Below are positions 26,007 to 42,482 of a stretch of 64,000 nucleotides of DNA, in pieces; the stretch's first letter is position 1, and every line of letters begins with the position of its first letter. The position numbers were made by a program, and so were the translations under genes. Source of the stretch: Chlorobiota bacterium (GTDB taxonomy: Bacteria; Bacteroidota; Ignavibacteria; Kapaibacteriales; UBA2268). The notes under the pieces were generated by a model. It did not search any database, was not told the origin of the DNA, and saw only the letters and a list, made by a program, of their open reading frames with translations. The stretch is taken from NCBI GenBank assembly GCA_034670025.1, contig JAXMOE010000001.1:229889-293888 (forward strand), in the 5' to 3' direction.

Positions 26007-26010
26007 TACA

Positions 26011-26184: not shown

Positions 26185-26213
26185 TAATATTATTAATTAA
26201 TCTTTGAGTTAAA

Positions 26214-26840
26214 ATGAAAAAATCAGTATTACTGTTATTTTTAGGACTATTCATATCTGGTTCTACTTTATGTGCAAAATTCGACTTAGGAGCCTTAAAT
26301 GGTATTCATATGACTGATGCTGAATTTGAACCAAGTAGACCACTATCAAAGACTCTTTATGCTATTCCTCAGTTTGGATTATTTGCTAAATATAGTTTGA
26401 ATCATAACTTAAGTATTCAATCATCACCTTCAATTACGTCGAAGAAAATCGTTGCAAATCAAATTATAAATATTGAACTAACATCTGAGTTTATCGAAAT
26501 TCCAATCCTATTAAGCTATGAATTTGATTTTGGACTGTTTAGGCCTTATGTTTTTGTTGGCCCTAATATTGGAATAATTGTAAACCCGAAATCAACTACA
26601 TACTTTAATGGTAAAGTGGAAGAAGATATTAGTGAAGATGTAGCAGATATTGAATATGCAATTAAAGGTGGTCTAGGCTTAGAACTTGAATTTGAAACTT
26701 TTTCGTTCTTCGGACAAGCATATCTGAACTATGGTCTAAATGACTTATATACACCGCCAAGTGGTATCACTTTCCCAGAAGATGTTTACTTAAGAACATA
26801 TGGTATTCAAGCGGGAATTTCATTCCCTCTTCTTAAATAA
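26214..26840 (+). CDS. small outer-membrane beta-barrel protein (OmpX/Ail/Lom-like), signal peptide
   Basis: N-terminal signal peptide, alternating amphipathic beta-strands, aromatic-rich C-terminus. 208 aa. Confidence 0.6.
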   Translation: MKKSVLLLFLGLFISGSTLCAKFDLGALNGIHMTDAEFEPSRPLSKTLYAIPQFGLFAKYSLNHNLSIQSSPSITSKKIVANQIINIELTSEFIEIPILLSYEFDFGLFRPYVFVGPNIGIIVNPKSTTYFNGKVEEDISEDVADIEYAIKGGLGLELEFETFSFFGQAYLNYGLNDLYTPPSGITFPEDVYLRTYGIQAGISFPLLK

Positions 26841-26867
26841 TTTAGAATCAAAATTATCTCCTTTCAA

Positions 26868-26896
26868 GCCCTGCTTTTTAAGTGGGGTTTTTTTTA
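26868..26896 (+). terminator. intrinsic terminator after the OMP gene
   Basis: CCCTGCT-ttttta-AGTGGGG stem and a T8 run. Confidence 0.5.
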
Positions 26897-26950
26897 TACC
26901 GAAAAATAGTCTGATTGCCCATTGAACTATAAGTTCAGTGAGCCCCTAAA

Positions 26951-27568
26951 ATGCTTACATATTTGCTAAAGATTTATATTGGGAGTAAGTTGCTATATGT
27001 TAAACTATTACTCCAAGGAGGAGTTATGAGAAGGTTCTGTTTAAAAATGTTTGTTCTATTCATTCTTATGGGTCTACAAACTGTAATTGCTAAGGAAAAA
27101 ATTGACGACCCATTTGATTTAGATGAAATTATAAAAATAATCAATATTAGCTTAGATAAAGTTTCTGAAGAAGTTGATTTAGTAAAAGCTGAGATTGTTT
27201 TATCTAGAAGTTTTTCAGATAAGTTTAATGGTGGTTTTAGTTTCTTTTGGTCATCAAAAAAAGACTGGCAAGAAGATAACAACTCCACTTTAACTTTTAC
27301 ATATGAACCCAGTAGTACAAAAGGTGGACAAAAGAATCTTTCAGACAACCTTAATAGATCTGTATTAAATGCAGTTGGGCTTTGGAAAAAATCTAAATTA
27401 AAAATTGATGGGTTAAAGAATACTTATTATACGGTAGATGTGAAGTTTATGCTTAGTGAAGATGCTAAACATGGGCTTAACCTAGAGCTTTTTGGTGTTG
27501 AATTAGCTGCCTCTGATAACAGTATTGTAAAATCCTCCCACTCTGTGAAATTAACATTCAAGAAGTAA
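26951..27568 (+). CDS. hypothetical secreted protein (likely true start at MRRF... near 27026, with signal peptide)
   Basis: Signal-peptide-like MRRFCLKMFVLFILMGLQTVIA. Confidence 0.5.
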   Translation: MLTYLLKIYIGSKLLYVKLLLQGGVMRRFCLKMFVLFILMGLQTVIAKEKIDDPFDLDEIIKIINISLDKVSEEVDLVKAEIVLSRSFSDKFNGGFSFFWSSKKDWQEDNNSTLTFTYEPSSTKGGQKNLSDNLNRSVLNAVGLWKKSKLKIDGLKNTYYTVDVKFMLSEDAKHGLNLELFGVELAASDNSIVKSSHSVKLTFKK

Positions 27569-27657
27569 ATAATTAATACCACTATTCGGTTATACTAGAA
27601 TAGAAATATTTCAACCGTGATTAGTAATTCTAATAAACACATAAACAAGGAGCAAAT

Positions 27658-28749
27658 GTGGACATCGTAAAAATGAAAAAATTATTTAACAAAATTCTTG
27701 AATCTACATATGGGATAACAGAATGGAATCCTGGGAATTTATTTGTATTCGAGGGAAAAGAAGTTCCAAAAGATATGAACGGATTCGAAACACTCAGTGA
27801 TCAATTTCAATCAGACGCTTCTCTTCAACAAAAATGCTTTACAAGTAATATAGAAGTGAGTACAGCAGGAAAACTCTTTACAGTAAGCACTTATGTAATA
27901 CAAGTAAAGTGGTATGAATTAATGGCGGGGTATGCAGTTTATAGACCAGTCAGATGGTTTAGCATAAATATTGTTTTTGATGAAGAGACAAATATTATTC
28001 CAAAATCAAGCACTATCAAGATGTATGAAGATGGGAAGGAGGTAGAAGATATGAAAATACCTTTGCCTCCTCTCCCAGGGGTTTTAGGTAACGCTATTGA
28101 GATAGCAAGTTGGGGAGCTGAGTTTATAGAATGGATAAAAGAGTATTTACCAGATGATTGGGGGGCACTAGGTCTTGCTGTTAGTGAAATAGCTGAGATA
28201 ATTAGTATGGCAATAAGTACTGCAGACTCTATTCTTGATGGAGAAACTAATTTAGAATTACTTATAGAAAATAGTCTTTTAATGTCCACTACACTCTCTA
28301 CAACATATAATTTTGAACCTGACGGAGCTCACGGTTATTGCTACATAGACAAATGGAATGAAAAAGGAGAAGATGCTCGGATATATCAGCCTAGGATAAT
28401 TGCAGGTGCAGCTAGCTGGACTATGTTGTTAAAGACTGATAGAATGAGATCTTGGGTCTATAATGATGACCACTTGATTTTATCTATTACTGGTGATTAC
28501 AAAGGGAATATACTCGGAGTCATGGCATCATGGAAGTTCGTTGATGAAGATCCAGAGGAAGGCGAATTTTCAAAATCTACAGAAGAGGAGGGACAGAATT
28601 GTTTAGATGTGTGGCAAGCAGAAGTTAGGAACTATTTGGGAAGCCCTGTCCCAAAAGAATTTACTCAGTGGTATGTAGAAACAGTTCTACGTCCTTGGTT
28701 AGATACAATATATTCACTAGGTATAAAAGAACCTGATAATCCAAAATAG
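27658..28749 (+). CDS. hypothetical protein (363 aa)
   Basis: Long ORF with no recognisable motif. Confidence 0.5.
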   Translation: MDIVKMKKLFNKILESTYGITEWNPGNLFVFEGKEVPKDMNGFETLSDQFQSDASLQQKCFTSNIEVSTAGKLFTVSTYVIQVKWYELMAGYAVYRPVRWFSINIVFDEETNIIPKSSTIKMYEDGKEVEDMKIPLPPLPGVLGNAIEIASWGAEFIEWIKEYLPDDWGALGLAVSEIAEIISMAISTADSILDGETNLELLIENSLLMSTTLSTTYNFEPDGAHGYCYIDKWNEKGEDARIYQPRIIAGAASWTMLLKTDRMRSWVYNDDHLILSITGDYKGNILGVMASWKFVDEDPEEGEFSKSTEEEGQNCLDVWQAEVRNYLGSPVPKEFTQWYVETVLRPWLDTIYSLGIKEPDNPK

Positions 28750-28772
28750 ACATTTGATTATTATTAAATAAC

Positions 28773-28806
28773 CCTACTAGCCTTTTTTTGGTTAGTGGGG
28801 TTTTTT
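28773..28806 (+). terminator. intrinsic terminator after the moron cassette
   Basis: CCCTACTAGCC / GGTTAGTGGGG stem and a T6 run. Confidence 0.55.
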
Positions 28807-28856
28807 ATTGTTTCTACTATACCCTTCCTCTATCAATCCAATACTCAAACATATTT

Positions 28857-28960
28857 TTTAAGAAAATAATAAGAAAAACCTTGTTATTCTTAAATTATTT
28901 ACTAAATTAGTAAGAACAAATAAGACGGAATAAGAAAATCAATATGAAAAATAAGAAAGA
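28857..28960. promoter_or_regulatory. operator/promoter array B: second copy of the switch-region module with iterated TAAGAA half-sites
   Basis: 28870-28940 aligns at about 80% identity with 19930-20001. TAAGAA copies at 28859, 28871, 28911, 28930 and 28950. Confidence 0.55.
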
Positions 28961-29090
28961 GAGTTTGGATTTAGACAAGTTTGATTTGGGAATTGAGCTC
29001 CGAAAGCTTCAAAGGTCATTGTTATTATCTGACTTAATAATGCCATTAGTGTTAATTGTTCTTGTTCTTATTGGGTATCATTTGATATGA
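28944..29090 (+). CDS. small hydrophobic protein (48 aa), not in the ORF track
   Basis: ATG immediately after array B. The C-terminal hydrophobic stretch LIMPLVLIVLVLIGY looks transmembrane. Its stop overlaps the next ATG (ATGA), suggesting translational coupling. Confidence 0.35.
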   Translation: MKNKKESLDLDKFDLGIELRKLQRSLLLSDLIMPLVLIVLVLIGYHLI

Positions 29091-29575
29091 TGAAGATAAA
29101 TGATTTCTCAAAGAAGTATGATTATCCAATCAGGGCAATCCGATATTTCTTAGAAACCAAGTTGACAAAAGGAAAACATTTCTACGTCAGAGGAGGTAGG
29201 TTAGTTTTACCTGAAAAGACTCAGGAGTTAATTCACAATAGATTTAAAGCACGTAGAGATTACCCAATTTCTTACAGACGGATTAATAATGAGTTCGGAT
29301 ATATAATTGAAGAGTTGAAAGACTTCACTATCGAAAACCAAGACTACATAATGGTCGGTAAGCTCTATCACTTCTCAAATGAGGGATATAGTAAAGTAGT
29401 TCGATACAGTCAGGGCGAGAGGTTTAAGGAAACCCCCAAGAGAATAACTGAAACAATTCCCTCGGTAGGAGTAACAAGGATGAACAACTTCTCCGAAATG
29501 ACAAAAAGGGAAAAAGAACATTGGGCTGACAATGTTAGACTAACGAAAGAAGCAAGAGAGTTAATATTCAAATAG
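29087..29575 (+). CDS. hypothetical protein
   Basis: 162-aa ORF. Confidence 0.45.
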   Translation: MMKINDFSKKYDYPIRAIRYFLETKLTKGKHFYVRGGRLVLPEKTQELIHNRFKARRDYPISYRRINNEFGYIIEELKDFTIENQDYIMVGKLYHFSNEGYSKVVRYSQGERFKETPKRITETIPSVGVTRMNNFSEMTKREKEHWADNVRLTKEARELIFK

Positions 29576-29584
29576 AGGAATTAA

Positions 29585-30013
29585 ATGGCATCAGAGTTAA
29601 TACCAAACATCACACGAGACCAGATAGTAAGAGCTGGACTGGACATTGTAATAGTATCAGGAAAGAATAACAGCAGTTTTAATGTTGGAGACAAACTCTA
29701 TTTGAGAGCATCAAACGGAGCAAAGCCACAGGAGAAGGTATTCAACGAGATGGCAGAGAATGATGAATATGACGAATACAACAGGGATGATAATGAGGAT
29801 GTATTCGCCACAATCGAGAAAGTGACAAAGTTTCAAGTATCTACTTACAACAAAGAGAAAAAGCAGTATGATATATTCATCAATGATGTTTATTTATCCC
29901 TAACAAAACAGCAAACATTCTTAAGCGAGCAAGGATTTACAGTAGATGCATTCTTAGACAGATTTGGTAAGAGTGGTATGTTCAACGGTTATCTAATCAA
30001 ATTTGCATTATGA
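29585..30013 (+). CDS. hypothetical protein
   Basis: 142-aa ORF. Confidence 0.45.
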   Translation: MASELIPNITRDQIVRAGLDIVIVSGKNNSSFNVGDKLYLRASNGAKPQEKVFNEMAENDEYDEYNRDDNEDVFATIEKVTKFQVSTYNKEKKQYDIFINDVYLSLTKQQTFLSEQGFTVDAFLDRFGKSGMFNGYLIKFAL

Positions 30014-30312
30014 AGTTAGACATTTCAAATAAGATTTCTGAAAAAATAGAACTATCGGATTTAAGTTCTGATCTGCAGTATTTAGCAGAAGTGATTGGGC
30101 TTGATTTGGTAAGGAAGTTAATAGTTCAAATGGGTGGTACAGGAAATCCAATTTATATTCCTGACACCTCTTCCTTTGACAAAGCAATACATAAAATGGT
30201 GGAAGATGACTTCCCCGGAAAGCATTTAAGAGATATTTCCTATGACACAGGAATATCATTAAGAAGATTAAAGAGTATCAATAAAAAATATAAGAAAGAA
30301 CACAGTTCGTAA
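30010..30312 (+). CDS. Mor/C-family phage transcriptional activator
   Basis: LAEVIGLDLVRKLIVQMGGTGNPIYIP (GG..iYIP motif) and a C-terminal HTH (RDISYDTGISLRRL). About 100 aa. Confidence 0.5.
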   Translation: MKLDISNKISEKIELSDLSSDLQYLAEVIGLDLVRKLIVQMGGTGNPIYIPDTSSFDKAIHKMVEDDFPGKHLRDISYDTGISLRRLKSINKKYKKEHSS

Positions 30313-30355
30313 AACAACTCTAAAACGGACTGTAGCAAGGTGTTGGAATGCACCT

Positions 30356-30658
30356 ATGTCCATCAGGGGAATTCCATCTCTCTCAAAGACGATTCCCCTG
30401 TATTATAAAAATACAGGAATAGAAATGAATGATGAACAATTACAAGAGTTAATTAGTGAAAAGTCTGACAAGCTCATAGCTAAACTGGAATGGCATGATA
30501 CACTCGATGTACAGAATGCAGTAAGGAAGGCATACAAGCAAGGGTTTAAGGATGGTGTAGATTATACCCATGAAAGCCAAAAGGCTATGGTTAAGGAAGA
30601 AGTTAAGCCCAAGACGAGTAAGAGTAAGAAGACAAGTAAAACTAAGAAGAAGAAATAA
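30356..30658 (+). CDS. hypothetical basic protein
   Basis: 100-aa ORF with a Lys-rich C-terminus. Confidence 0.4.
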   Translation: MSIRGIPSLSKTIPLYYKNTGIEMNDEQLQELISEKSDKLIAKLEWHDTLDVQNAVRKAYKQGFKDGVDYTHESQKAMVKEEVKPKTSKSKKTSKTKKKK

Positions 30659-30890
30659 CGGCACTGGTAGCACAGTTATCCCATATAGTAATAGTTGCTG
30701 TGCTACTGGATGTCGGTTTTAATTAAAAACCATACTCAAATGAGTGAAGAATACACAAGAAGGGCAGGTAATGCTGGGGGTGAACTTAATGCACCCTAAG
30801 CCCCCATAGTTGGGTATGGTAATATTTAACAGCAAAGGTAGTACGGACTCCATATAGAAATTAAATGTTGATAACAATATACATTATACA

Positions 30891-30928
30891 AGTGGGGGTT
30901 TATTGTTTAGTTCCCCCACTGTTTTTTA
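30891..30928 (+). terminator. intrinsic terminator
   Basis: AGTGGGGG / CCCCCACT stem with a 14-nt loop, followed by GTTTTTT. Confidence 0.6.
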
Positions 30929-30952
30929 AAACAAAGAAATAGGAAATAGAAA

Positions 30953-31414
30953 ATGAGTGAAGAGAAAGTAAGAGAATACCCATACATCGGAGTACATCCC
31001 AAAGGTATGTGGGTACTATTCAGTAAAAAGAATACTGGTGTACTGTTAAATGATTGTACTGATGTAGACGAAGAGTTGAAGGCAACGACAGAGTCAAAGA
31101 AGTGGATAGAAGAAGAATTTACTTTAGCTGACTTACCTACAGTAGATGAGGAAGTGTTAGAACAACTAAATTCCGACAATGAGATAATTGTTAAAGACGA
31201 TGCAAGAGATTGGATATATGCACCATTCAAATTTGTAGCGGGCGGTTCAGCCAAAGGAGTTGAATTAACAACCTACGCACTGCAAACAGACAAAGGTACA
31301 ACGGTCTTAACTGTAGCCAAAAACACAGAATCAGGAAAGCTATCTACAAGCATTGTGTTTATTCCAGAAGCAAGGATTATAACACATGATGACGGTACTA
31401 AGTCAATCAAATAG
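30953..31414 (+). CDS. hypothetical protein
   Basis: 153-aa ORF. Confidence 0.45.
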   Translation: MSEEKVREYPYIGVHPKGMWVLFSKKNTGVLLNDCTDVDEELKATTESKKWIEEEFTLADLPTVDEEVLEQLNSDNEIIVKDDARDWIYAPFKFVAGGSAKGVELTTYALQTDKGTTVLTVAKNTESGKLSTSIVFIPEARIITHDDGTKSIK

Positions 31415-31420
31415 AATTTT

Positions 31421-31493
31421 AATCCACCCTTGTTCGCTCATGCGACCTTTCCCCCAGGAACTAAAAGCATATTCCTCTGACAAGGGTGGGATT
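31421..31493. repeat. inverted repeat AATCCACCCTTG / CAAGGGTGGGATT with a 48-nt loop
   Basis: 12/13-bp near-perfect stem immediately after the stop codon at 31414, at the left edge of the AT-rich island. Confidence 0.45.
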
Positions 31494-31737
31494 GATAAAA
31501 GAATTCAACTTTTCGTTATAATATAGAGCCTACAGTATCTGACATTTAAACCTCTAAACATCCAAAAAAACAAAAGCTTTAAGTGTTGCTCTAAAAGTTC
31601 AACGAGCCAATTAAATAAAGCAAATCTTGTAAATAGTTTTATTTTTACATAATTTAATCTGTTAAACGTAAACTAACAGTTTACAACCGTATAAAATTAT
31701 TGTTTAATTTGACTAATAATCATTACGTGGAGTTTAG

Positions 31738-32520
31738 ATGAGTTTAAAAAAGTTCATTAATTATGAATATACTTTAAGACCCAAAAATCTTGCAAATGTT
31801 ATTGATTCGCATATGGATCATATTTATGAAGGCTTTCTACAAAGATCTATATTGTCTTTAAATGGAATGGGAACCGATAAATTTAAGATTACTGTCAAGA
31901 TAATGGATGATAATATTTACGCAATTAGAATAAGACGTAAATATCAAAAAGGAAGCATAGAAAGTTCTATAATTATATTCAATTTAAACCCTGGCTCAAA
32001 CACTATTTCTATTAGTAAGAGCGAAGATTTTTTAACTAATGGTATCTTATTAAGAGTAGTCATAGTCTTGTTGAGTAAAAAACTAAATAAGAATGGATTA
32101 AAAATAGAGACAAGAGAAATAAAAATTACTAAAGACTTTTGGGAAATAGTAAAAGGCAAAGAGGACAGGATAAAAGAATTAAAGTTTGAATATAAAAGTG
32201 CAAATCTAAAAGGATCCTCAAAAGCAATTCCAACAAAATTAAGAATGTTATTCGAAATGCTTGGAGATAATTCAAATAGCATATCAATGAACGCTCCAAG
32301 GGGCTTCACTTTAAAAAGTGTTAATAAATTCAATAAAATATTAAATCCACTTGTTACTTTTTCTAAAACTTCAAACTCAAATATTCTTATTAAATTTATT
32401 GATGAAAAAAAGTTCTATAACACTTCAAAGAATTATTCAGTTACTATTTATGATAATTTCAATTTTGATAAAATTGGTGATGATACAGAATCAAATTTTA
32501 ATTTAGAAATTCTATCTTAA
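31738..32520 (+). CDS. hypothetical protein, AT-rich orphan (260 aa)
   Basis: N/K/I-rich composition unlike the flanking phage genes. Isolated between a 320-bp AT-rich leader and a terminator. Confidence 0.5.
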   Translation: MSLKKFINYEYTLRPKNLANVIDSHMDHIYEGFLQRSILSLNGMGTDKFKITVKIMDDNIYAIRIRRKYQKGSIESSIIIFNLNPGSNTISISKSEDFLTNGILLRVVIVLLSKKLNKNGLKIETREIKITKDFWEIVKGKEDRIKELKFEYKSANLKGSSKAIPTKLRMLFEMLGDNSNSISMNAPRGFTLKSVNKFNKILNPLVTFSKTSNSNILIKFIDEKKFYNTSKNYSVTIYDNFNFDKIGDDTESNFNLEILS

Positions 32521-32596
32521 AATTCTATTTAGATAAATATTATTTTTAATTTTGTATTCGAATCTGGCTCAACAGGCAGATTTAGAATGTAGTAAT

Positions 32597-32628
32597 TAGG
32601 AACACATGTAAATGTGTTCCTAATTTTT
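32597..32628. terminator. bidirectional intrinsic terminator
   Basis: AGGAACACAT-gtaa-ATGTGTTCCT perfect 10-bp stem with a T-run after. Confidence 0.7.
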
Positions 32629-32644
32629 CAACTACAATACTACA

Positions 32645-33391
32645 CTAGTCACAACATGATTCAATAGAATATAACTCGAGAACTTCATCTTGAGAAAGAA
32701 CTTTGTTAAAAAATGCAATGTCATCAATAGATCCATTAAAATACTTTCCAATTATTATATCACCACCATTAACTGGATTAATAACTTCTTGAGTTATACT
32801 AGTCTGTGTATCCATTAGTTTACCATTTTGATAGAGTGACATTGTTTTAATATCGAAGTCACATGTTGCAACTACGTGATACCATTGATTTAGCGAATTT
32901 TGATCAGAGTTGTCCCAAACAGAATGCATGTTATTAAAAAAGGTTACTTTATTTATATCATATACACCTAATGACATTACTCTATTTGTAGCAGGAGTTT
33001 TATTGTCTTTGTCACCTCTAGCAACTAGGACTTCATATTGTCCTTGATTATTGATAGTATGTTTATACCAAAGAGAAATAGAGTACTTTCTCAACCCATT
33101 TAAAAAATTAGGAGACGTCATGTACAGATAGTTTGGAGAAGTATCGCTAAATTTATAAGCACAATTTTCTCCACCCTCTCTACCTTCAGTTGGTTCCGCA
33201 TTGTTCTCATTAGTTAAATCATTACTAGACTTAAAATCCTCTATACTGGAATTACTAAAAGGGTAGTAGGCAATCAAATTATCTTCTAAAGAAGCTGGAA
33301 TACAAACTTTATTAGTTGGGTCAGTTCCATTATCTTCTTTCTTGCATGAGAAAGCTAGAAGTAGTATTATAGTTAGAAAAAAATATTTCAT
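32645..33391 (-). CDS. lipoprotein with LamG-like (concanavalin A-like lectin) domain
   Basis: Lipobox LLAFSC after the signal peptide. LWYKH...WYHVVATCD...LYQNGKL...FNGSIDDIAFFNKVLSQDEV is a LamG jelly-roll signature. Confidence 0.65.
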   Translation of the reverse strand: MKYFFLTIILLLAFSCKKEDNGTDPTNKVCIPASLEDNLIAYYPFSNSSIEDFKSSNDLTNENNAEPTEGREGGENCAYKFSDTSPNYLYMTSPNFLNGLRKYSISLWYKHTINNQGQYEVLVARGDKDNKTPATNRVMSLGVYDINKVTFFNNMHSVWDNSDQNSLNQWYHVVATCDFDIKTMSLYQNGKLMDTQTSITQEVINPVNGGDIIIGKYFNGSIDDIAFFNKVLSQDEVLELYSIESCCD

Positions 33392-33590
33392 TTGAATCCT
33401 TCATGTATGTTAAAAAATGTATTAGAATAAACACAAAACTAGTAGTTTAGTTACATTTTATATCGAGTTTATAAATCTGATAACTTCTCTTTATGTTTAC
33501 TAAATACGTCCGACTGCATCGCTCCCTTATTAAAAGCTCATAAATTCTTAAAATATTGATATACTTTACTTTAAAATCTGATAGAAGTTA

Positions 33591-35579
33591 TTAAGACTTT
33601 ACTACTTCTTTCAGCACTTCACTTAAGTCCATTAAAGTAAAAGGTTTGGGGATAAAGTGTGTTAGTCCAATCTTATTCAAATCTGATATGTCTTTACTCT
33701 CGGTAAAACCAGAAGTAACAATTATATTTATTTCACTATTTAGCTCTTTCAGCTTTTTATAGCATTCTTTACCGTTCATTTGTGGCATAATCATATCTAG
33801 AATAACTAGGTCAATTTCATCAGATTTACTTTTAAATAACTCAATTCCTTTTATCCCATCTTCAGCAAGTAATACTTTAAACCCTAGCTTTTCTAAAAGT
33901 ATTTTTGTCGTTACTCTGATTATTTCTTCATCATCTATTACTAGAATGGTTTGATTTCCAGCTATTAATTCATTATTGTTATTTACTTCACTATCTAATT
34001 TAGCATTCTCAGATAAAGGTAATAGTACATTGAATGTAGTACCTATGTTTAATTCACTATATACAACTATCTCACCACAATGCTCCTTAACAGCCCCTTG
34101 CACTGATGACAACCCTAAACCTGTACCTTTACCTCTTTGCTTAGTTGTAAAAAAGGGATCGAATACTTTTTTAGCTACTTCTTTTGTCATGCCGTGGCCT
34201 GTGTCATTGATAGAGATAAGAACATAATGACCTGGCTCAACGTTTAAATATGAATGTTCTAAATCTTGCTTAGAATAAAATTTAGACTTTGTTGCAATGC
34301 TCAATGTGCCTCCATTTGGCATCGCGTCAAAAGCATTAATAAAAAGGTTAATAAAAATGTTCTGTATTTGAGATTTATCCCCTTTTATAATGAAATCATT
34401 ATCTGAAACTTTAAAATCAAAAATTATATTTTTATTAATTCGACTAGAAACTAATTCAAGAGAAACGTTGATTTCATCAATCAAATTTAATTCTATAGAT
34501 TGGAACTTACCTTTTCTTGAGTAATCAAGTAATTTTTTAATTAATTCTGCGGCTCTATTACTCGCATTTTCTATGATACCTAAAGCTTTCAATGAATGTT
34601 TATTAAGACCTTCATCGTACTTCATTAATTCAACAGAATTAAGAATACCAGTTAGAACATTATTAAAATCGTGAGCAACTCCTCCTGCTAACAATCCAAC
34701 CGCTTCCATTTTCACTTTTTGAGCTAACTGTGCCTCAATTTCTTTCCTCTTTGTTATATTGTTTATCTTAATAATAACATCATGTTTAACATCCGCCTCC
34801 ATTGGAAAAACTTTTACTTCATAAAAATTTAGTTTATTATTCTTTGTAGCCTGTTCTTCGAATGAAAAAGTAGTATTGTTTTTTATACATTCTTGGATTC
34901 TAATTTTATGATCTTTTAATAAATCAAAATAATTGAATAAATATTTTCCTAAAACTTCTTTATCGTCATTTTTTGTTAATAATCTTCTACCAAACTTGTT
35001 TATTAATGTAATTTCAAATTGGTCATTAATCCCAATTAATGTCGATGGCATTGAATTAATTACACCTTCTAAATACATAGTTAATCTTTCCACTTCGTTT
35101 TGATTCTTAAGTTCTTCTGTTACATCTCTTAAAACTGCAAAGCTCATTCTTTCATTTAACAGTATTGCGGATAGTTTCATATTTAATATTTTACCAGATT
35201 TATGAATAAATTCATAGTCAACTTCATCTAGGTACTTTTGTTCATAAAAAAGTGGTAATATTTCACTAATAGCTTTTTCTTTACTTTTTGTTGTTAAAAA
35301 ATCAGTAGATTTCTTACCAATAACCTCATGTTGTTCGTATCCTAGACCCTTTAACCAATAGTCACTAACATCAATTATATGACCCGACTCATTTATTGAA
35401 TGAAAAATTGCAGGGATTTTCTTCAACACATCAAATTGTTTAGAATTTTCTACACTAGAACATTCATCAAGCTCATTTGATAAAATTTCAAAAACAGTTT
35501 TTGAAATAGCTTCGTCGTCAAAAAGAATTTTAATCTTTTCCTTAAAAGTATTTATTGTTCCGTTGTCCATAATTCTCAA
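33591..35579 (-). CDS. hybrid sensor histidine kinase/response regulator with PAS domains
   Basis: H-box AHDFNNVL, ATPase N/G boxes (DTGHGM, GTGLGL), C-terminal receiver (LVIDDEEIIR...DLVILDMIMP). Confidence 0.85.
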   Translation of the reverse strand: MRIMDNGTINTFKEKIKILFDDEAISKTVFEILSNELDECSSVENSKQFDVLKKIPAIFHSINESGHIIDVSDYWLKGLGYEQHEVIGKKSTDFLTTKSKEKAISEILPLFYEQKYLDEVDYEFIHKSGKILNMKLSAILLNERMSFAVLRDVTEELKNQNEVERLTMYLEGVINSMPSTLIGINDQFEITLINKFGRRLLTKNDDKEVLGKYLFNYFDLLKDHKIRIQECIKNNTTFSFEEQATKNNKLNFYEVKVFPMEADVKHDVIIKINNITKRKEIEAQLAQKVKMEAVGLLAGGVAHDFNNVLTGILNSVELMKYDEGLNKHSLKALGIIENASNRAAELIKKLLDYSRKGKFQSIELNLIDEINVSLELVSSRINKNIIFDFKVSDNDFIIKGDKSQIQNIFINLFINAFDAMPNGGTLSIATKSKFYSKQDLEHSYLNVEPGHYVLISINDTGHGMTKEVAKKVFDPFFTTKQRGKGTGLGLSSVQGAVKEHCGEIVVYSELNIGTTFNVLLPLSENAKLDSEVNNNNELIAGNQTILVIDDEEIIRVTTKILLEKLGFKVLLAEDGIKGIELFKSKSDEIDLVILDMIMPQMNGKECYKKLKELNSEINIIVTSGFTESKDISDLNKIGLTHFIPKPFTLMDLSEVLKEVVKS

Positions 35580-35681
35580 TTTGTTTTAATAATACTCATT
35601 ATCCATAAAAAAATAATTATTCTGTTTCATTACTGCTGGTTTGTAATAGATACTTGTGAAAAGAGCTCTCTACCACTTACC

Positions 35682-35906
35682 CTATCTCTCATAGTCGTGA
35701 CAAACTTTTCCAGAGCAAAGCCAATCTGTCGAGAATCCTTGTTTAAATAGTCTTAAACTAATTTTTTGTAGATCATTGTCGTTGTTTAGATATTTATTTA
35801 GTGACTGATGCGAAATACCAATCTTCATAGCAAATTCAGATTTAGTTAGCCTTGTAATACTAAATAATTTAGTAAATCTAGAAAGTATATCTCTGTCGTT
35901 CTTCAA
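35682..35906 (-). CDS. XRE-family HTH DNA-binding protein
   Basis: LTKSEFAMKIGISHQSLNKYL is a helix-turn-helix. Confidence 0.5.
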   Translation of the reverse strand: MKNDRDILSRFTKLFSITRLTKSEFAMKIGISHQSLNKYLNNDNDLQKISLRLFKQGFSTDWLCSGKVCHDYER

Positions 35907-36106
35907 AATTTAAATAAAAATAATTAACGTAAAAGTTCAGTGAGCTAAGATAATGATATTTTTTGGATATATTTATTGGCGTAAAAGTTCAATGAGGATA
36001 CTTTTTTTTATTTCTATTTTTAAACCATTAAAAATTCTATAAAATTTGGTAACAAAATGACAATTATCTAAAATTATTTTAAAAATGTGCTTATTTAGAG
36101 GTTTAG

Positions 36107-36304
36107 ATGAAAAGAGAAGAAATTTGCAAAATATTAAATAGAATTGATGAAACTAGTAGTATTGACTTAAATGATGATCTTGAATATAAATTTTACAAAG
36201 TCTATAACGGTTTGCTTTTTATAGAAACATTTCCATTAACAAAAAACCATAGTAGTATATTAAGACTCACTAACAGAGGTAAAGAATTAATTAGGCATAA
36301 CTAA
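36107..36304 (+). CDS. hypothetical small protein
   Basis: 65-aa ORF in an AT-rich region. Confidence 0.25.
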   Translation: MKREEICKILNRIDETSSIDLNDDLEYKFYKVYNGLLFIETFPLTKNHSSILRLTNRGKELIRHN

Positions 36305-36510
36305 GCATATTGAACAGGAGTAGTTATGTCAACAATAAGCATTACTAATTATATTTTTGATTTTTTTAAAGCCCAACGATATTATGTGATAATAAATAGG
36401 CTGTTCTTTAAAATAGAAATTTAACTCTGTTCCGATAAGTATATCAGATATAGGAGTTATAATTGATATATATTCAAATAACACGAGCAAGCCTACTAAT
36501 ATGCATCATA

Positions 36511-36556
36511 GCAGTGCCCATCTCTCTCATTTATCAGGATTACACCGCTAACATAC
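36511..36556. repeat. direct repeat copy 2 (partner of 26011-26056)
   Basis: See copy 1. Confidence 0.55.
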
Positions 36557-36661
36557 TTTCAACTTGCTCTGTTCTAAAACAACTCTTGTAGCACAGCAAA
36601 GTTAAATAAAACGAGATTATAATTCAAGATATTTGTCAATATCTATTCAGTTAGCTATATT

Positions 36662-37198
36662 GTGTTTCTACTTAACTACTATGGGAAATCAAACTTGAAA
36701 ACTTTACTATTAATTTTATCTACTGTAATACTTCTTTCATGCTCCAATGATGACAAATCGACTACTGAACCTACTGTCCAAGGTAATCTTTACTGTTCAG
36801 ATGTTGACATTATGCCTGACGGCTTAGAAGACACTTACGTAAGAATAGTTGGTGTGCTGCCGAACCCAGATGGTGATGATGACTATAATGAACAGTTTAG
36901 AGTGAAGTCATTCTTACTAGATAGTAATGTTGATATTGGGAGTTACTATATTCTTGATGATGAGGATGTAAGATGGGATCTCGATGAGTTGGAGTCCTCT
37001 ATTGATTACATTGAGACTGATAATTGTAGAACGATAACTTACACCTCTGACAAAGTAGCTCAACTACTTAATTCTGGTGATGTGATTTATCTTTATAATA
37101 AGGATGAAGTTCTCATTCAGACTGTTTCTTTTGGGGCTGTTGGGTCTGGGGAGTGGGTGGATTTCTTTTATAATTATTCAGTGATTCCGGGTGCATAA
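36662..37198 (+). CDS. lipoprotein, possibly lamin-tail-domain (LTD)-like
   Basis: Lipobox ILLSCSNDD. YVRIVGVLPNP...GSYYILDDED pattern resembles LTD (EFVEL-N-P...DLSGW-L). Confidence 0.4.
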   Translation: MFLLNYYGKSNLKTLLLILSTVILLSCSNDDKSTTEPTVQGNLYCSDVDIMPDGLEDTYVRIVGVLPNPDGDDDYNEQFRVKSFLLDSNVDIGSYYILDDEDVRWDLDELESSIDYIETDNCRTITYTSDKVAQLLNSGDVIYLYNKDEVLIQTVSFGAVGSGEWVDFFYNYSVIPGA

Positions 37199-37213
37199 AT
37201 TAAGAGGTTTAAA

Positions 37214-37438
37214 ATGAGAAATATAAGTAAAGAAAATCTAGTTAAATATTTGAAAGAGATTGACGAGAAAGGTCAATTTGCAGCTGACACTATAGAGAAA
37301 AGAGTGTTTTTAAATACAGGGTTCAAGTATTTTAACAGTAAAGACTTTGAAAAATCAACAGCTTTTCATGGTGCTGAATACCAAGGGGGATTGTCTTTAA
37401 CGGAATATGGTAAAAGTATATTAGAAGAAAGTGATTAA
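37214..37438 (+). CDS. hypothetical protein (first gene of a three-gene AT-rich operon)
   Basis: 74-aa ORF, 15 bp after the lipoprotein gene. Confidence 0.4.
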   Translation: MRNISKENLVKYLKEIDEKGQFAADTIEKRVFLNTGFKYFNSKDFEKSTAFHGAEYQGGLSLTEYGKSILEESD

Positions 37439-37453
37439 ACCTAGTTAGATTTT

Positions 37454-37936
37454 ATGATGTTAACTGATAAAAATGTTGAAACCCTATTAAATTCTCCTAA
37501 AAAATTAAACTTATTTTTTGAGGATTTATTTCAAAAACCCAAGCAAAAATTCGGTCACACTGAATTTGAATTTGATTTTTTTGATGAAAGTGATATTAAG
37601 TTTGGTTTAAAGCTAAGAATTAATAATTCAAATAAATCAAATTTTTCAGCTATTTTAGGCTTTTATTCAGATGGTAATAATTATAATATTCTTACTAGAT
37701 ATAATGGTAATTCTCATTGGCATAAAAACTTACTACACAATTCACCTGATTTCAAAGATTTTCACATTCATATCGTCAAAGAAGAATATGTACAAAGCCC
37801 CAAAATACGTAGAAATGAAAGTTATGCAGAACCTACCGATAGATATGACAATTTTAGATCTGCTACTATTTGTTTAATTAAGGATTGTAATATAACTTTG
37901 AAAGGTGAAATCGAACCAGAACTATTTAATGAGTAA
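37454..37936 (+). CDS. hypothetical protein (160 aa), His-rich motifs HWHKN / HIHIV
   Basis: ORF overlapped at its 3' end by the next gene. Confidence 0.45.
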   Translation: MMLTDKNVETLLNSPKKLNLFFEDLFQKPKQKFGHTEFEFDFFDESDIKFGLKLRINNSNKSNFSAILGFYSDGNNYNILTRYNGNSHWHKNLLHNSPDFKDFHIHIVKEEYVQSPKIRRNESYAEPTDRYDNFRSATICLIKDCNITLKGEIEPELFNE

Positions 37937-38729
37937 AAGTCTTAACATATTAAAATCTATAAGAGAAAATATTTCATCTGAAATTGAGATTATAAGTGAT
38001 GGCGTAGATAGCTATGAAGTCATTACTCCGTTCTATTTTGATGATGGGGATATGTATACTATTAGACTTGAAAAGTCAACCTTTAATAACTGGTATTTCA
38101 CTGACGAAGGAAATACATTTATGCGATTAAGCTACGAAATGGATGTAAATAATCTGACTAAAGAAGGTAGAAGATTTGAAATTGTTAATTCAGTTGTTAA
38201 TTCACTAGATATTCAAAACTCTGATGGAGAATTAATATCAAATGTACAAAATGAGGAATATGGTAAATCATTATATAATTTGATTCAATGTATAACTAGA
38301 ATTAATGACATATCTTTTTTAAGTAGAGAGAATGTTAAATCTACTTTTATTGAAGATTTTAAATCTTTTATTAATAGTGAACTTAAGGATAAACACTTTG
38401 AATTTGATCATCATATACCTAAATATGATATTGGAAAGAAGTACCCTGTTGACTGCATGATAAACAGTGTCCCCAATAAGAAACCTCTTTTTCTTTTTGC
38501 AATAAATAGTGATAGTAAATGTAAAGATGTTACTATAAATATTCTTCAATATCAAAAGTGGGACATTGCTTTTAAACCAATTGCAATATTCGAAGACCAA
38601 ACTAATATCAGTAGAAACGTGCTTGCTAGATTCTCTGATGTTGGCGAAAAACAATATTCGAGCCTGTATTCAAACAAGGAAGGTTTAGCGAAACAATTTA
38701 AAGAATTTTATAACATTCAAAATTTTTAA
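37905..38729 (+). CDS. hypothetical protein (274 aa)
   Basis: ORF with a 32-nt overlap onto the preceding gene, consistent with an operon. Confidence 0.45.
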   Translation: MKSNQNYLMSKSLNILKSIRENISSEIEIISDGVDSYEVITPFYFDDGDMYTIRLEKSTFNNWYFTDEGNTFMRLSYEMDVNNLTKEGRRFEIVNSVVNSLDIQNSDGELISNVQNEEYGKSLYNLIQCITRINDISFLSRENVKSTFIEDFKSFINSELKDKHFEFDHHIPKYDIGKKYPVDCMINSVPNKKPLFLFAINSDSKCKDVTINILQYQKWDIAFKPIAIFEDQTNISRNVLARFSDVGEKQYSSLYSNKEGLAKQFKEFYNIQNF

Positions 38730-38920
38730 TTTTATGGTTCTTTAAACCATATAAAACCATCACATTAATTGCCATCTTTTTTGAACGATTATTACATTTT
38801 AAATCTCACAATAATTTGTAAATAATTTTCCAAGAACCACTCCATTTATTGCAACCCTTACCTACTAACCTCCAAAATCGGTAAATCTTACAAACTTATT
38901 CTCATTCTTTAATTTTACCC

Positions 38921-38962
38921 TATAAAAAAAAAGCCCAACTATAAAAGTCAGGCTTTAGAATT
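38921..38962 (-). terminator. probable intrinsic terminator for the minus-strand repeat-protein gene
   Basis: AAAGCC...GGCTTT stem followed (on the minus strand) by a T9 run. Confidence 0.4.
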
Positions 38963-38978
38963 AAAATCTAATTAAAAT

Positions 38979-40874
38979 TTACATTACAACTAAAGTTACC
39001 AATCCTGTTCCATCTAAAGTATTAGTCCCTGTACTTGTTGGATTATTTTGTATCTGTATTTTAAGTGTACCAGCAGTATTTGTAACAATAGTACCTATAA
39101 ATCTATAAGGCGTAGATAAAACAGAAGAATTTAAATCTTCAAAATTAGTTGCATCATAGCCAAAATCTCCATCAAAAAAACCAGAAGTAAAAGTACCAGT
39201 GTAGTTAATCCTAGTGTCAATTTTCCCAGATCCAGTTTCATTAACTTGGAAATAGCCAAAAAGTTGATATACGGTATTTGCAGCTAAAGTGAATTCAATT
39301 CCTGTATCTTGATATGTACTACTTAACGTTAAACTGTTAGGTGTATCAGTAGATGCTGTAGCTCCACCACCACCACCTGCAACTGTAGCCCAGCTTAAAT
39401 TAGTTCCATCAGTTGTTAAATATCTACCAGAATTACCTGATTGTGACGGTAAATTACCTTGCTTTCCATCTAACTGAGTTTGTACATTTGAAGTTACAGA
39501 ATTAATAAATTGAAGCTCAGTGCTTGTTACCGAACCGTCTGCTAATTTTGTTGCATCTATTGCAGCACCTGCTTTTATGTCTGAATTTTCAATATTTGTG
39601 ATAGTGTTATTATCTGCATCTATTGATTTATTTGTTAAAGTCTGTGTATCTGTACTACCAACTACGTCTCCCGTTGGTACTGCTTTAACTGCAGTTACTG
39701 CACTAGTTCCATTTCCCTGTAGAAAATTACCAGTTGCTAAAGTTGTTGCTCCTGTACCACCATTTGTAACTGACAAAGTTCCACTTACTGAGTTAGCATC
39801 TCCTAATGGCAATGAACCATAAACAGCAGCTGTTCCTGCTGTGCCACTTGAAAGTAATACTTGATTAGCAGTTGCTGAAGAGTTTACTTCTAAGTTAGTA
39901 GCATTTGATAAGATAGTGCTAGACCCACCTGCGTTTAATGTATTTGTAGCAAAAGATAAACCATTACCAGCTGTTATAGTTGCTTGTTTGCCGTCTAGTT
40001 GTGTTTGTACGTTTGAGGTTGTTGAATTAATATACTGAAGTTCAGTACTTGTTACAGATCCATCAGCTAACTTAGTCGCATCAATTCCAGCATTGGATTT
40101 AATATCTGCATTCTCAATATTAGTTATTGAGTTATTATCTGCATCTATTGATTTATTTGTTAAAGTCTGTGTTGCTGTTGTACCCACTAAATCCCCTGTA
40201 GGTAAACCAGTTGTGGCAGATAATAGACCTGAAGAATTTGCAGATACAATTCTATTGCCTGTGCCTGTTAGAGAACTTACAGTAACATTTGTGGGTGTCA
40301 ACGATAATGCATCTGTACTATTTACACTAATTACACCTGTATTTGCACTATAACTTAGCTCCATTTCTGTATTATTCAATTCTCCATTGTCTGGACCTAT
40401 GTGTAGGGTGCTACCGCCTACATAAACATCATCCCATCTGTTATCATCTGCTCCAATAGTACCGTTAAGTGTTTGTGGGTTAAAATTACCACTATTGTCT
40501 AACACCGTCGCTTCAGCCTGTATTAATATTAACTGGTCATATCTTTTTTGAGAAAATAATGTACCATTTACATAAATATCTAATAATGTAAATGTATTGA
40601 TTACAGAAGCATTAATTCCTGACCAGTCGCCTGTAGACCCACCCGCTGGGTAATCGTTTACGTTAACTATTACTATTCCATTATCGTTTGGTGCTAGACT
40701 GAAAGTCTCCCCTCTAAATAACAATGTATTACTGGTATAGTCTTTTAGTTCAATATAAACGTTCTGTGCAGCTGTGTTATTAGTGTAATAAGCTACTTTA
40801 GATGGCTCTAATCCATAAGATGTCAAAGAGCAAATAAGTAAGATTAGAACAGTTATAAGTTTGAATTGATTCAT
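38979..40874 (-). CDS. secreted tail-fibre-like repeat protein with signal peptide and two tandem ~140-aa repeats
   Basis: Signal peptide MNQFKLITVLILLICSLTSYG. Repeated block ...TQTLTNKSIDADNN(S/T)ITNIEN(A/S)DIK...IDATKLADGSVTSTELQ(Y/F)IN...NVQTQLDGKQ. G/T/S/N-rich. Confidence 0.6.
   Translation of the reverse strand: MNQFKLITVLILLICSLTSYGLEPSKVAYYTNNTAAQNVYIELKDYTSNTLLFRGETFSLAPNDNGIVIVNVNDYPAGGSTGDWSGINASVINTFTLLDIYVNGTLFSQKRYDQLILIQAEATVLDNSGNFNPQTLNGTIGADDNRWDDVYVGGSTLHIGPDNGELNNTEMELSYSANTGVISVNSTDALSLTPTNVTVSSLTGTGNRIVSANSSGLLSATTGLPTGDLVGTTATQTLTNKSIDADNNSITNIENADIKSNAGIDATKLADGSVTSTELQYINSTTSNVQTQLDGKQATITAGNGLSFATNTLNAGGSSTILSNATNLEVNSSATANQVLLSSGTAGTAAVYGSLPLGDANSVSGTLSVTNGGTGATTLATGNFLQGNGTSAVTAVKAVPTGDVVGSTDTQTLTNKSIDADNNTITNIENSDIKAGAAIDATKLADGSVTSTELQFINSVTSNVQTQLDGKQGNLPSQSGNSGRYLTTDGTNLSWATVAGGGGGATASTDTPNSLTLSSTYQDTGIEFTLAANTVYQLFGYFQVNETGSGKIDTRINYTGTFTSGFFDGDFGYDATNFEDLNSSVLSTPYRFIGTIVTNTAGTLKIQIQNNPTSTGTNTLDGTGLVTLVVM
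39470..40250. repeat. intragenic tandem DNA repeat (two ~260-bp copies about 520 bp apart)
   Basis: 40-bp identical core TATTATCTGCATCTATTGATTTATTTGTTAAAGTCTGTGT at 39613-39652 and 40131-40170, with about 75% identity in the flanks. Confidence 0.7.
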
Positions 40875-41040
40875 TCAATTTACCTCTATTAATTAAATTA
40901 TGATTTGTTTATTGATGCAATTTATAATTATTATTTTAAGCAAACAATAATAATGAAGTCCTGTTAATAATACCTATTACTGGCTATATTAAAATCAACT
41001 ATTATTTTTTCATTGTCATTTCTGGTCTGTTTTTATGATT

Positions 41041-41051
41041 CCCCCCCCCCC
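41041..41051. repeat. C11 homopolymeric tract (G11 on the minus strand)
   Basis: Eleven consecutive C in an otherwise AT-rich genome, about 170 bp upstream of the minus-strand repeat-protein gene start (40874). Confidence 0.9.
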
Positions 41052-41067
41052 GTGCAAAATTATTACA

Positions 41068-41847
41068 TTAGTTTCCTAATACATTCTTTGCTTTTATCGA
41101 TTCAATTTTATTCATAATTAAGTCAAAATCAGCTTCATTCTTAATCTGACTCCATTCAGAGATAAGTAAATCATATTCATTTGAAGTAGTATAGGGTTTA
41201 ATATAAGCCATATTCTTATTGAACTCCCTAATGTCAAATGAAATCGCAGCGTCTATATAAAAATTGACTAACATAAATAATATTAACACTAAGCTTGGTA
41301 AAGAGAATTTAATGATTGATCTTGCTGATTGAATTTTAAAATTAGTTAACAGATTTTCTATAACTTTTTTATCAGACTCAATTTCATTTTGAATCTTTTC
41401 TATTTCTTTGCTAATATTTTCAGGGTCTACTTTAGAGGGTTTTTCCTTGCTGGAATCGTCTATGCTTGCCAATAGCACTTCTGTTCTCGATTCTAGTTTT
41501 ATATTTTCATGCAACAAATTTTTGATAAGCTCAACTTTTCTATCTTTAGTGTTTTCTAAGTTATCTATGAAGAGTGCTAAAATCATAGATAGTGCAACTA
41601 TCATTAGTATACTAGTGGTTCGACTGAACATATAAAGATCTTGACTAGAGACTCGTTTATAGTAATGTTGAATAAAACTATCACTAATATCCATTAATAT
41701 ATTAACGACGTAAGGACCAATAATTGATAGTACCCACAATATTCCTGCTGTAAGTAAGGTAATAAACAAGCTGTATGCTATTTTTTTCATAGTAAATAAT
41801 TCTTTCCAAGATGTGTCCTTGTTTGTCATCCTATATCTCCTTGTCAT
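41068..41847 (-). CDS. hypothetical integral membrane protein with central coiled-coil
   Basis: Hydrophobic segments at both ends and a charged coiled-coil middle. Confidence 0.5.
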   Translation of the reverse strand: MTRRYRMTNKDTSWKELFTMKKIAYSLFITLLTAGILWVLSIIGPYVVNILMDISDSFIQHYYKRVSSQDLYMFSRTTSILMIVALSMILALFIDNLENTKDRKVELIKNLLHENIKLESRTEVLLASIDDSSKEKPSKVDPENISKEIEKIQNEIESDKKVIENLLTNFKIQSARSIIKFSLPSLVLILFMLVNFYIDAAISFDIREFNKNMAYIKPYTTSNEYDLLISEWSQIKNEADFDLIMNKIESIKAKNVLGN

Positions 41848-41933
41848 GTTTAATTAATGATATCCAATTTATAAATTATATTTATAAACATAGAATATTC
41901 CAATGTCAAAATAAACTATTTTTTAACAAGTTT

Positions 41934-42482
41934 TCAAAACAACTGACTCTCAATTTCCTCAATTATCTCTATTATATCGTCATCAGTTAGAGTAAGAAAC
42001 GGTGAAGCAGGCACGTCCATTTCACGTGTGTGTGCCTTAACTTCATATTCTTTCCCTGCTTTTGTTTTCCTCAAGTGCTGAACTACACTAACCTTACCTT
42101 GAAACCCAAAGTTGTGAGCAGCCCCATAAGGAGAAGTCATTTTGATAGATATTTGGTCTTTCCCATAAGGAGTAACATTTACAGAATCACGCATATTTGC
42201 AGATCGATCCAAAGTCCTTTTTAGCGGATTTATCCCTCTACGTTTATAGTCTTTTATAGTACTCTTTGCTAGTGGTTTCCATCTACTATTACCACCTGAG
42301 AACAAATCTACAGAGCTTGAACTGCCATCCCATCTTCCATAGCTAGAAAAGTTCTTGTCTATTGCTGACTCTATTATTTCAGCAATAGTTCCAAGCAAGG
42401 GAGTGATGTTTGAATACTTCTTTTGCACTTCGGCATAAACAGCATTCATTTTGTCAATTAATTCTTTCCTTTCTAAGTCCAT
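41934..42482 (-). CDS. phage virion morphogenesis protein (Mu G-like position/size)
   Basis: 182 aa, immediately downstream of the F-like gene as in the Mu head module. Confidence 0.45.
   Translation of the reverse strand: MDLERKELIDKMNAVYAEVQKKYSNITPLLGTIAEIIESAIDKNFSSYGRWDGSSSSVDLFSGGNSRWKPLAKSTIKDYKRRGINPLKRTLDRSANMRDSVNVTPYGKDQISIKMTSPYGAAHNFGFQGKVSVVQHLRKTKAGKEYEVKAHTREMDVPASPFLTLTDDDIIEIIEEIESQLF

Follow-up and report, generated by a model that had tools for sequence, protein, structure and literature searches.

Prophage lipoproteins such as T5 Llp, Cor and Ltp block superinfection. Signalling genes are also carried by temperate phages, as in the case of phage phiCDHM1, which harbours an agrC histidine kinase (PMC3901668), and the morons, or lysogenic-conversion cassettes, are a described class of phage accessory genes (PMC3594210). 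Here we analyse a stretch of 64,000 nucleotides from a Chlorobiota bacterium (assembly GCA_034670025.1, contig JAXMOE010000001.1, positions 229,889 to 293,888 of the forward strand). This whole stretch is called the window below, and all positions are counted from its first letter. In the window a prophage carries a gene for a hybrid histidine kinase, adjacent to the gene of a LamG-domain lipoprotein and to that of a possible small helix-turn-helix (HTH) regulator. The reading that we consider likely is that the kinase is an intact orphan and a moron, located in the accessory island of one temperate phage, where it would couple a cytoplasmic signal to the phosphorelay of the host.

An initial annotation, made from the sequence alone, had placed these three genes on the minus strand within 32645-35906, and all three open reading frames (ORFs) are present at those positions. 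The kinase gene occupies 33591-35579 (minus strand) and encodes a soluble hybrid histidine kinase with the Pfam domain order PAS-PAS-HisKA-HATPase_c-REC. The protein has 662 amino acids (aa) when it is read from a TTG start, and 659 aa in the database copy, which begins at the ATG at 35570, the likely start. The domains PAS_9, PAS/PAS_4, HisKA (3.1e-9), HATPase_c (1e-19) and Response_reg (8.3e-22) all exceed the Pfam cut-offs. In an alignment of 20 sequences the phospho-acceptor H303, which lies in AHDFNN and is aligned to the H-box of CckA, is invariant. The same holds for the N box (N411/N415), the G1 box (D459xGxG), the F box (F473-K480) and the G2 box (G485-L490), and invariant columns also contain the receiver residues D549/D550, D595, T622 and K645. 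The gene had been described as a full hybrid kinase with an intact receiver, and indeed none of the catalytic motifs is missing. No stretch of 19 residues in the protein attains transmembrane hydrophobicity, therefore we regard the kinase as a soluble cytoplasmic sensor. We also considered the first PAS domain as a LOV-type photosensor, which was ruled out by inspection because it reads GKKSTDFL and does not have the GxNCRFLQ motif.

Regarding possible partners of the kinase, phmmer searches with its receiver, DHp-CA and PAS segments found no other REC, DHp or PAS domain in the six-frame ORFs of the 64-kb window. The general Pfam and PHROG scans did not give any Hpt or receiver match among the phage ORFs either. 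Within the limits of the window, the kinase is thus an orphan.

The relatives of the kinase are distant. In a search of 5.8 billion proteins, including the NCBI genomes, the only match above 43% identity was the kinase itself; the next best protein had 36% identity along 90% of the kinase, and local identity peaked at 43%, in the kinase-receiver half. Its 90% cluster has one member, and the gene has been seen on one NCBI contig and in two Logan runs. No orthologue was found in any sequenced relative, and no close homologue in a scan of IMG/VR. Three of the nearest relatives belong to chromosomal signalling clusters of an ordinary kind; the GC content of their contigs is 39-47%, and that of the host lineage 32-35%. 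Because the nearest relatives are distant and lie on contigs of higher GC content, these comparisons give no sign of a recent capture of the kinase from the host, and no donor is identifiable. Furthermore, the AT-rich composition of the gene argues for a long residence in an AT-rich gene pool.

The closest solved structure is the DHp-CA core of Caulobacter CckA (PDB 5IDJ, 2e-37). Both proteins have an identical H-box, GGVAHDFNN, they share the N, G1, F (FDPFFTTK) and G2 boxes and a C-terminal receiver, and in both of them PAS domains precede the DHp. However, the kinase of the window has no transmembrane segments, it comes from a bacterium outside the Alphaproteobacteria and neither ChpT nor CtrA is seen in its context. 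With the NCBIfam CckA equivalog models it scored 316 and 270 bits, where the cut-off is 1000. An assignment as CckA orthologue was ruled out on these sub-cut-off scores, the lack of a transmembrane segment and the FCB-group host. Judged by the sequence of its kinase core, it belongs to the CckA-type HisKA subfamily.

The next question is whether the three genes belong to a single phage. Positions 1-17.5 kb of the window are ordinary chromosome, with nusA, infB, truB, ribF, pnp, penicillin amidase and epimerase genes. Relatives of the host were found by scanning one genome per species with the epimerase of this flank. Three of them are free of the prophage (L089, L090 and L091, labelled as Chlorobiota and Ignavibacteriota metagenome-assembled genomes), and in all three the blastn homology to the window ends at 17569. 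This is where the left prophage junction, the attL region (17569-17646), begins. There is no tRNA at this junction; the insertion spot is intergenic, directly upstream of a 152-aa gene and adjoining the epimerase gene (17569 in the window and 9451-9909 in L089). The prophage runs on beyond 64000 and its attR lies outside the window. The prophage context given in the initial annotation is confirmed: the integrase, the S24 repressor and the replication genes are found to the left of the three genes, and the terminase, portal and head and tail genes to the right.

For the phage itself, we used a related phage, the IMG/VR contig UViG_3300037565_000147 (59.1 kb), whose positions 1-40658 were put together from three loci that overlap. 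Window 18764-31414 (55-87% aa identity) and window 41917-52041 (77% nucleotide identity) have homologues in it, in collinear order. Between both blocks the contig carries 13.6 kb of small ORFs which are unlike window 31415-41916, except for a promoter-like piece of 210 bp. Apart from this piece, neither tblastn nor blastn found a counterpart of 31415-41916 in the rebuilt contig (1-40658) or in the related contigs L006-L010. Since the host synteny stops at 17569 and both flanks are collinear in one related phage, the kinase, LamG and HTH genes sit inside one prophage and not between two elements. The host is a Kapaibacteriaceae/Ignavibacteria-like bacterium of the FCB group and the phage is temperate and of the Mu-head type.

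These data also bear on the scenario, already named in the initial annotation as the one that would overturn its own reading, in which the three genes lie in native host DNA, or in a piece of it, enclosed by two phage-derived elements. Such an origin would agree with genes of bacterial type running opposite to the early operon, and with the chromosomal orthologues that the LamG gene has in the host lineage. Nevertheless, both flanks are collinear in single related phage genomes, and the prophage-free relatives have no phage or island gene in the 10 kb that follow the junction. Besides, the kinase has no orthologue among these or other sequenced relatives, the GC content of the island is lower than that of the host, and 30-42.5 kb contains neither a second integrase nor an att-like repeat. 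The collinearity with related phages and the prophage-free relatives lead us to reject this scenario, which we consider extremely improbable.

The region without counterpart is an island of around 10.5 kb (~31415-41916), placed where the early and the packaging operons converge. The mean GC content of its genes is 29.6% (28.9% for the kinase gene), whereas the host genes have 34.9% and the phage core 34.4-36.5%. The cargo of the island is of at least four kinds, namely the kinase with the possible HTH gene, the LamG lipoprotein, a plus-strand group at 36107-38729 and a secreted protein of 631 aa. The island is therefore an accessory (moron) region, a mosaic of separately acquired cassettes that the nearest related phages do not have. 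We also considered whether it is a nested transposon or integrative element; this was ruled out, because the region has no integrase, no transposase and no convincing terminal repeats: neither of the two enzymes is encoded in 31-42 kb, and the flanking direct or inverted repeats sought in 30-42.5 kb were just short AT-rich repeats at chance level. As for orientation, the three genes had been said to lie on the strand opposite to the surrounding phage operons. This is right for the plus-strand early operon and for the group at 36107-38729, but they run in the same direction as the 631-aa gene and the packaging operon.

The LamG gene (32645-33391, minus strand) encodes a protein of 248 aa with a Laminin_G_3 domain (1.9e-18). 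Its hydrophobic N-terminal leader ends in Cys16, which is followed by a stretch rich in Lys, Asp and Glu, and this cysteine is invariant in 11 out of 11 members of the family, in agreement with its earlier description as a LamG lipoprotein. Cysteines at positions 30, 77 and 246-247 are also invariant in the alignment with ten relatives, and these four further conserved positions suggest disulfides. An acidic stretch after the lipoprotein cysteine resembles the surface-export signal of Bacteroidota. By its sequence features the protein is predicted to be an exported lipoprotein, and the export-signal pattern indicates that it is probably exposed at the surface. By analogy with known prophage lipoproteins, its role would most plausibly be to alter the cell surface, for instance in superinfection exclusion. 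It resembles T5 Llp, Cor and Ltp in being a small lipoprotein in the accessory region of a temperate phage; however, it has no sequence relationship to them and it is a LamG-fold protein from a host chromosomal family.

This host origin comes from its relatives, of which there are only 14. Kapaibacterium-like genomes have orthologues of 62-68% identity on the chromosome, and three of these loci show the gene in a conserved position upstream of the citrate synthase and malate dehydrogenase genes, gltA-mdh (at 10001-10747 in L105 and L106, and at 5789-6535 in L107), and in two of the three it comes directly after the type IX secretion gene sprA. Therefore, the phage LamG gene descends from a surface lipoprotein family of the host lineage. 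It had also been suggested that the three genes could be a captured host fragment. By ancestry this is true of the LamG gene, with its orthologues next to citrate synthase, but it does not apply to the kinase, whose best matches, at 36-43% identity or less, lie on the higher-GC contigs described above.

A copy of the LamG protein with 88% aa identity is found on another integrative element (L003). This element encodes an integrase, an HTH_17 protein and a DUF3987 primase-like protein, and a kinase of this type is missing from it. There, a 75%-identical homologue of the 631-aa protein (L003 7103-9250) adjoins the LamG copy at a distance of 0.75 kb. The corresponding two genes of the window are separated by 5.6 kb, a distance that includes the kinase gene, the HTH ORF and five plus-strand ORFs. 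At the LamG gene, the DNA homology between the window and this element covers 32644-33460 only, that is, the gene and 69 bp upstream of it. The LamG gene is thus a cassette independent of the kinase and the HTH ORF. A recurring pairing of kinase and LamG was ruled out, given that the TPR kinase close to the LamG copy on this element shares only a generic ATPase domain with the kinase of the window (25% over 196 aa).

The third ORF (35682-35906, minus strand; 74 aa from a TTG start) possibly encodes an XRE/434-repressor-like HTH protein. It matched HTH_3 with 21.5 bits, under the cut-off of 23, and the PHROG repressor family phrog_2328 with 9.7e-6. Its best PDB matches, which are weak, were the 434 repressor (E 0.09, residues 17-66), PezA and HipB (E ~0.1-0.7), and its AF2 model is of low confidence (pLDDT 59), with 4-5 helices and no significant Foldseek match. 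These weak signals agree with each other. No homologue was found in the collection of 5.8 billion proteins, and on the identical Logan contig L001 the ORF was not called as a gene. Thus, of the small XRE regulator previously proposed, the ORF stands and the XRE identity stays below threshold.

The divergent region between this ORF and the 65-aa ORF on the other strand contains two copies of a 15-nt motif, TAAAAGTTCA[AG][CT]GAG, which are 52 nt apart (35930 and 35982, plus strand). Further copies at 31592 and 26928 lie upstream of the ORFs 31738 and 26951, and all four prophage copies precede plus-strand accessory ORFs. The whole window has five matches, including one with two mismatches in host DNA, against 1.2 expected by chance; the related phage contigs that were examined do not have the motif, and L003 has one copy of it. 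It may be an operator or promoter element. At the other end of the three genes, between the convergent LamG gene and ORF 31738-32520, there is a perfect hairpin with a 14-bp stem (32596-32625; z -5.2, with 0 of 200 shuffles folding as well). It is a candidate terminator of the leftward transcript, although no U-run follows it. Between the kinase and LamG genes no stable hairpin was found (z = 0.17). The lack of a hairpin there and the strong one after the LamG gene make a single leftward transcript of HTH, kinase and LamG possible.

On this basis one could think, as the initial annotation did, of a signalling module. The three genes would then have co-evolved in the phage, and the kinase would steer the lysis-lysogeny decision or the expression of LamG via the HTH protein. 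The genes are indeed adjacent and on the same strand, with the hairpin pattern just described, and the HTH ORF stands at a divergent region with a repeated motif which also occurs upstream of other accessory ORFs. However, the LamG gene moves as its own cassette without either neighbour, as seen on L003, and the HTH ORF has no detectable relatives. The HTH protein does not have a receiver domain, which means that it could not be phosphorylated by the kinase in the canonical way, and a standard switch with S24 repressor and integrase is already present 14 kb away. Moreover, the arrangement was found nowhere else in the protein searches with the kinase and the HTH ORF or in IMG/VR. The proposal of a three-gene module is therefore not upheld, and we regard it as quite unlikely. 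The part that the initial annotation gave these genes in host behaviour or lysogeny decisions is speculative. A related and still more doubtful idea is that the kinase reads the metabolic or redox state of the host and feeds it into the accessory genes or into induction, either through the host phosphorelay or through the HTH protein and the TAAAAGTTCA-NNGAG sites. If this were true, the lysogeny decision would have a two-component input owned by the phage. To our knowledge, no phage sensing system is known in this phylum.

Prophage accessory slots often hold defence genes, and a candidate of this kind lies in the plus-strand group of the island. It is a pair of DUF6978 and DUF1828 genes (37454-38729, plus strand), which are adjacent and overlap by 32 nt. 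The pair matched PADLOC PDC-M24B (6.8e-21) and, far more weakly, PDC-M24A (0.0079), as well as DUF1828 (1.7e-21) and the uncharacterised PHROG families phrog_27326 (1.4e-19) and phrog_5059. From these matches it resembles the candidate defence system PDC-M24 A/B and is probably a prophage-borne defence cassette. The pair is 2 kb from the kinase gene, and the REC part of the kinase has a weak PADLOC match to PD-T4-6 (1.4e-4). Both observations would fit a kinase that acts as the sensor of an anti-phage defence or superinfection-immunity system for neighbouring effectors. Nevertheless, the PADLOC match covers the generic receiver only and no system of the library matched the whole kinase, while the PDC-M24-like genes are on the other strand and in a separate operon. 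PADLOC did not offer a convincing defence system for any of the three ORFs (kinase, LamG and HTH), and we consider such a function of the kinase very unlikely.

Coming back to the kinase as a moron that acts on the signalling of the host, the following steps can be proposed. The kinase would be expressed from the prophage, perhaps together with the upstream HTH ORF, and transcription would read through into the LamG gene. Its two PAS domains would bind a cytoplasmic cue, upon which the kinase would autophosphorylate at His303, with transfer of the phosphoryl group to Asp595 in its receiver. The output would then go to an Hpt protein and a response regulator of the host, or else the kinase might work as a phosphatase or phosphate sink on the host relay. 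We place the output in the host phosphorelay because, in the window, the phage encodes neither an Hpt protein nor a response regulator. A lysogenic-conversion function that alters the signalling of the host would be the result.

It could also be thought that the kinase has no function and is a passenger, not yet decayed, in a phage with headful packaging. The gene is a singleton known from one population, it has no partner genes in the window and it lies in a region of fast turnover, all of which would suit a passenger. However, a stop-free ORF of 662 codons in DNA of 29% GC is unexpected without selection, and every catalytic residue has been kept across three domains. In addition, both GC and GC3 are fully ameliorated to the AT-rich background, in comparison with the 39-47% GC of the contigs of its relatives, which points to a long maintenance. 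For these reasons we consider a passenger unlikely.

Some points do weigh against the kinase being an expressed moron coupled to the host. The gene comes from one population only, so that selection on it is not measurable and its synteny is not comparable. The right end of the prophage is beyond the window, so a partner gene could lie there. The call of the HTH gene, which might share the transcript, is weak on its sequence matches. Finally, a scan for sigma-70 promoters gave 60 sites, against 64.9 expected from shuffles, in a model that does not represent the promoters of the FCB group.

The other genes of the island can be described briefly. Its first gene is an ORF of 260 aa (31738-32520, plus strand) with a GC content of 25%, which had no Pfam, PHROG, PADLOC or NCBIfam match and is missing from the related phage. 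The plus-strand group begins with small accessory ORFs at 36107-37438, of 65 aa, 178 aa (a putative lipoprotein) and 74 aa, which have no family matches. The promoter-like piece mentioned above falls at 36477-36687, and its 210-bp match to the related phages L006 and L009 has 68% identity. The 631-aa gene (38979-40874, minus strand) encodes a secreted, fibre-like repeat protein. Downstream of it, a hairpin at 38930-38956 looks like a terminator. The central repeats of this protein are found in 110 IMG/VR stretches, and this wide distribution is consistent with a fibre-like protein. Within the gene there is a direct repeat of 222 nt (39458-39679 and 39983-40204, 79% identity), and the Logan contig L001 ends at this repeat. 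The last gene of the island, an ORF of 259 aa (41068-41847, minus strand), had no matches and is missing from the related phage.

Regarding the phage backbone, the tyrosine integrase (17647-18777, minus strand; Phage_integrase 4.2e-9) has a homologue of 72% aa identity at the end of the related viral contig L010. The S24/LexA-like, CI-type repressor (19149-19895, minus strand; Peptidase_S24 3.4e-13) has one of 71% in the rebuilt UViG contig. The early or replication operon (20031-31414, plus strand), with Sak4-like, SbcC-like, helicase and Mor-like (30010-30312) genes identified with PHROG and Pfam, is collinear in UViG_3300037565_000147. A second variable stretch is found inside this operon, at 25534-28815 (plus strand), without counterpart in the related phage; it contains an outer-membrane beta-barrel gene (26214-26840, OMP_b-brl_2 7e-15) and two uncharacterised ORFs.

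On the other side of the island, the packaging operon (41934-51169, minus strand), annotated with PHROG, comprises Neck1, Mu-F-like, portal, TerL and TerS genes, two ParB-like genes and two PAPS-reductase-like genes, and it has 77% nucleotide identity to related phages. The two ParB-like nuclease-domain genes and the two PAPS-reductase-like genes are at the head of the operon (47291-51169, minus strand) and are conserved in the related phages; in the relative, one of the PAPS-reductase-like genes has DUF3440. These four genes may form a DNA-modification module. The head and tail genes (51345-64000, plus strand; protease, decoration protein, major capsid, adaptor and tail proteins, all from PHROG) follow, with homology to L006 that reaches 56706. 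The offset of the related TerL is not the same in two contigs of 60,565 bp from different metagenomes (L007 and L008; JGI 3300012855 and 3300013003), and this difference suggests that they are assemblies of one complete genome with circular permutation. A megablast of 41-64 kb against the GenBank phages gave zero matches.

In order to know how common such kinases are on phages, we made a profile-guided scan of ~2.9 million IMG/VR contigs, which returned 142 stretches encoding CckA-type kinases. One of these kinases lies in the interior of a 61-kb contig, adjoining a gp5-like spike gene, and another one is 2 kb from a TerL homologue (L119). Many others are near contig ends and could be host flank. 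With the exception of the TerL on L119, which is 29% identical to that of the phage in the window, no backbone genes were shared between the IMG/VR kinase contigs and the window. Among the PHROG families there are several of kinases or receivers, including phrog_5982, which matches the kinase at 1.7e-87, phrog_20458 and phrog_10912. All these IMG/VR and PHROG hybrid kinases have the HisKA-HATPase-REC architecture in common with the kinase of the window, and all of them are at most 40% identical to it. Matches found by tblastn in the GenBank phages, at 29% identity or less, were dropped as precedents because many of them are mislabelled bacterial contigs. These "phage" records hold Salmonella and E. 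coli ArcB/NtrB-type genes, as well as Listeria and Enterococcus ones, and would inflate the counts of phage kinases. Phages thus carry such kinases rarely but repeatedly, and this prophage is not the only case; the initial annotation had called a hybrid kinase unusual as phage cargo, and it is uncommon, even with 142 stretches in IMG/VR.

Should the kinase be active in lysogens, it would mean that a temperate phage inserts its own sensor into the phosphorelay network of the host. This would be an addition to the short list of phage-borne sensing devices, such as the agr genes of phiCDHM1 and the phage quorum-sensing receptors. The locus also shows how accessory islands are assembled in the phages of a poorly studied Kapaibacteria/Ignavibacteria lineage, with a host lipoprotein gene and a fibre-like gene common to an unrelated integrative element, and a candidate defence pair alongside. 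As accessory signalling genes on temperate phages are a known kind already, and this is a single occurrence in an uncultivated lineage judged from its sequence, the finding is of modest weight.

In comparison with the described morons or lysogenic-conversion cassettes (PMC3594210), the genes of this island likewise lie between conserved modules, are missing from close relatives, have a deviant GC content and run against a flanking operon. However, the island is a multi-cassette replacement of 10.5 kb and not a single gene, and as to a promoter and terminator of its own, the sigma-70 scan was no better than shuffles and the hairpin after the LamG gene is a candidate terminator. With respect to phiCDHM1, the AgrC protein is a membrane quorum-sensing kinase of another histidine kinase class and is found together with agrB and agrD (PMC3901668), whereas the kinase described here is a soluble PAS hybrid with a receiver and has no partner genes. 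What both have in common is a temperate phage which carries a bacterial-type sensor histidine kinase as accessory cargo (PMC3901668).

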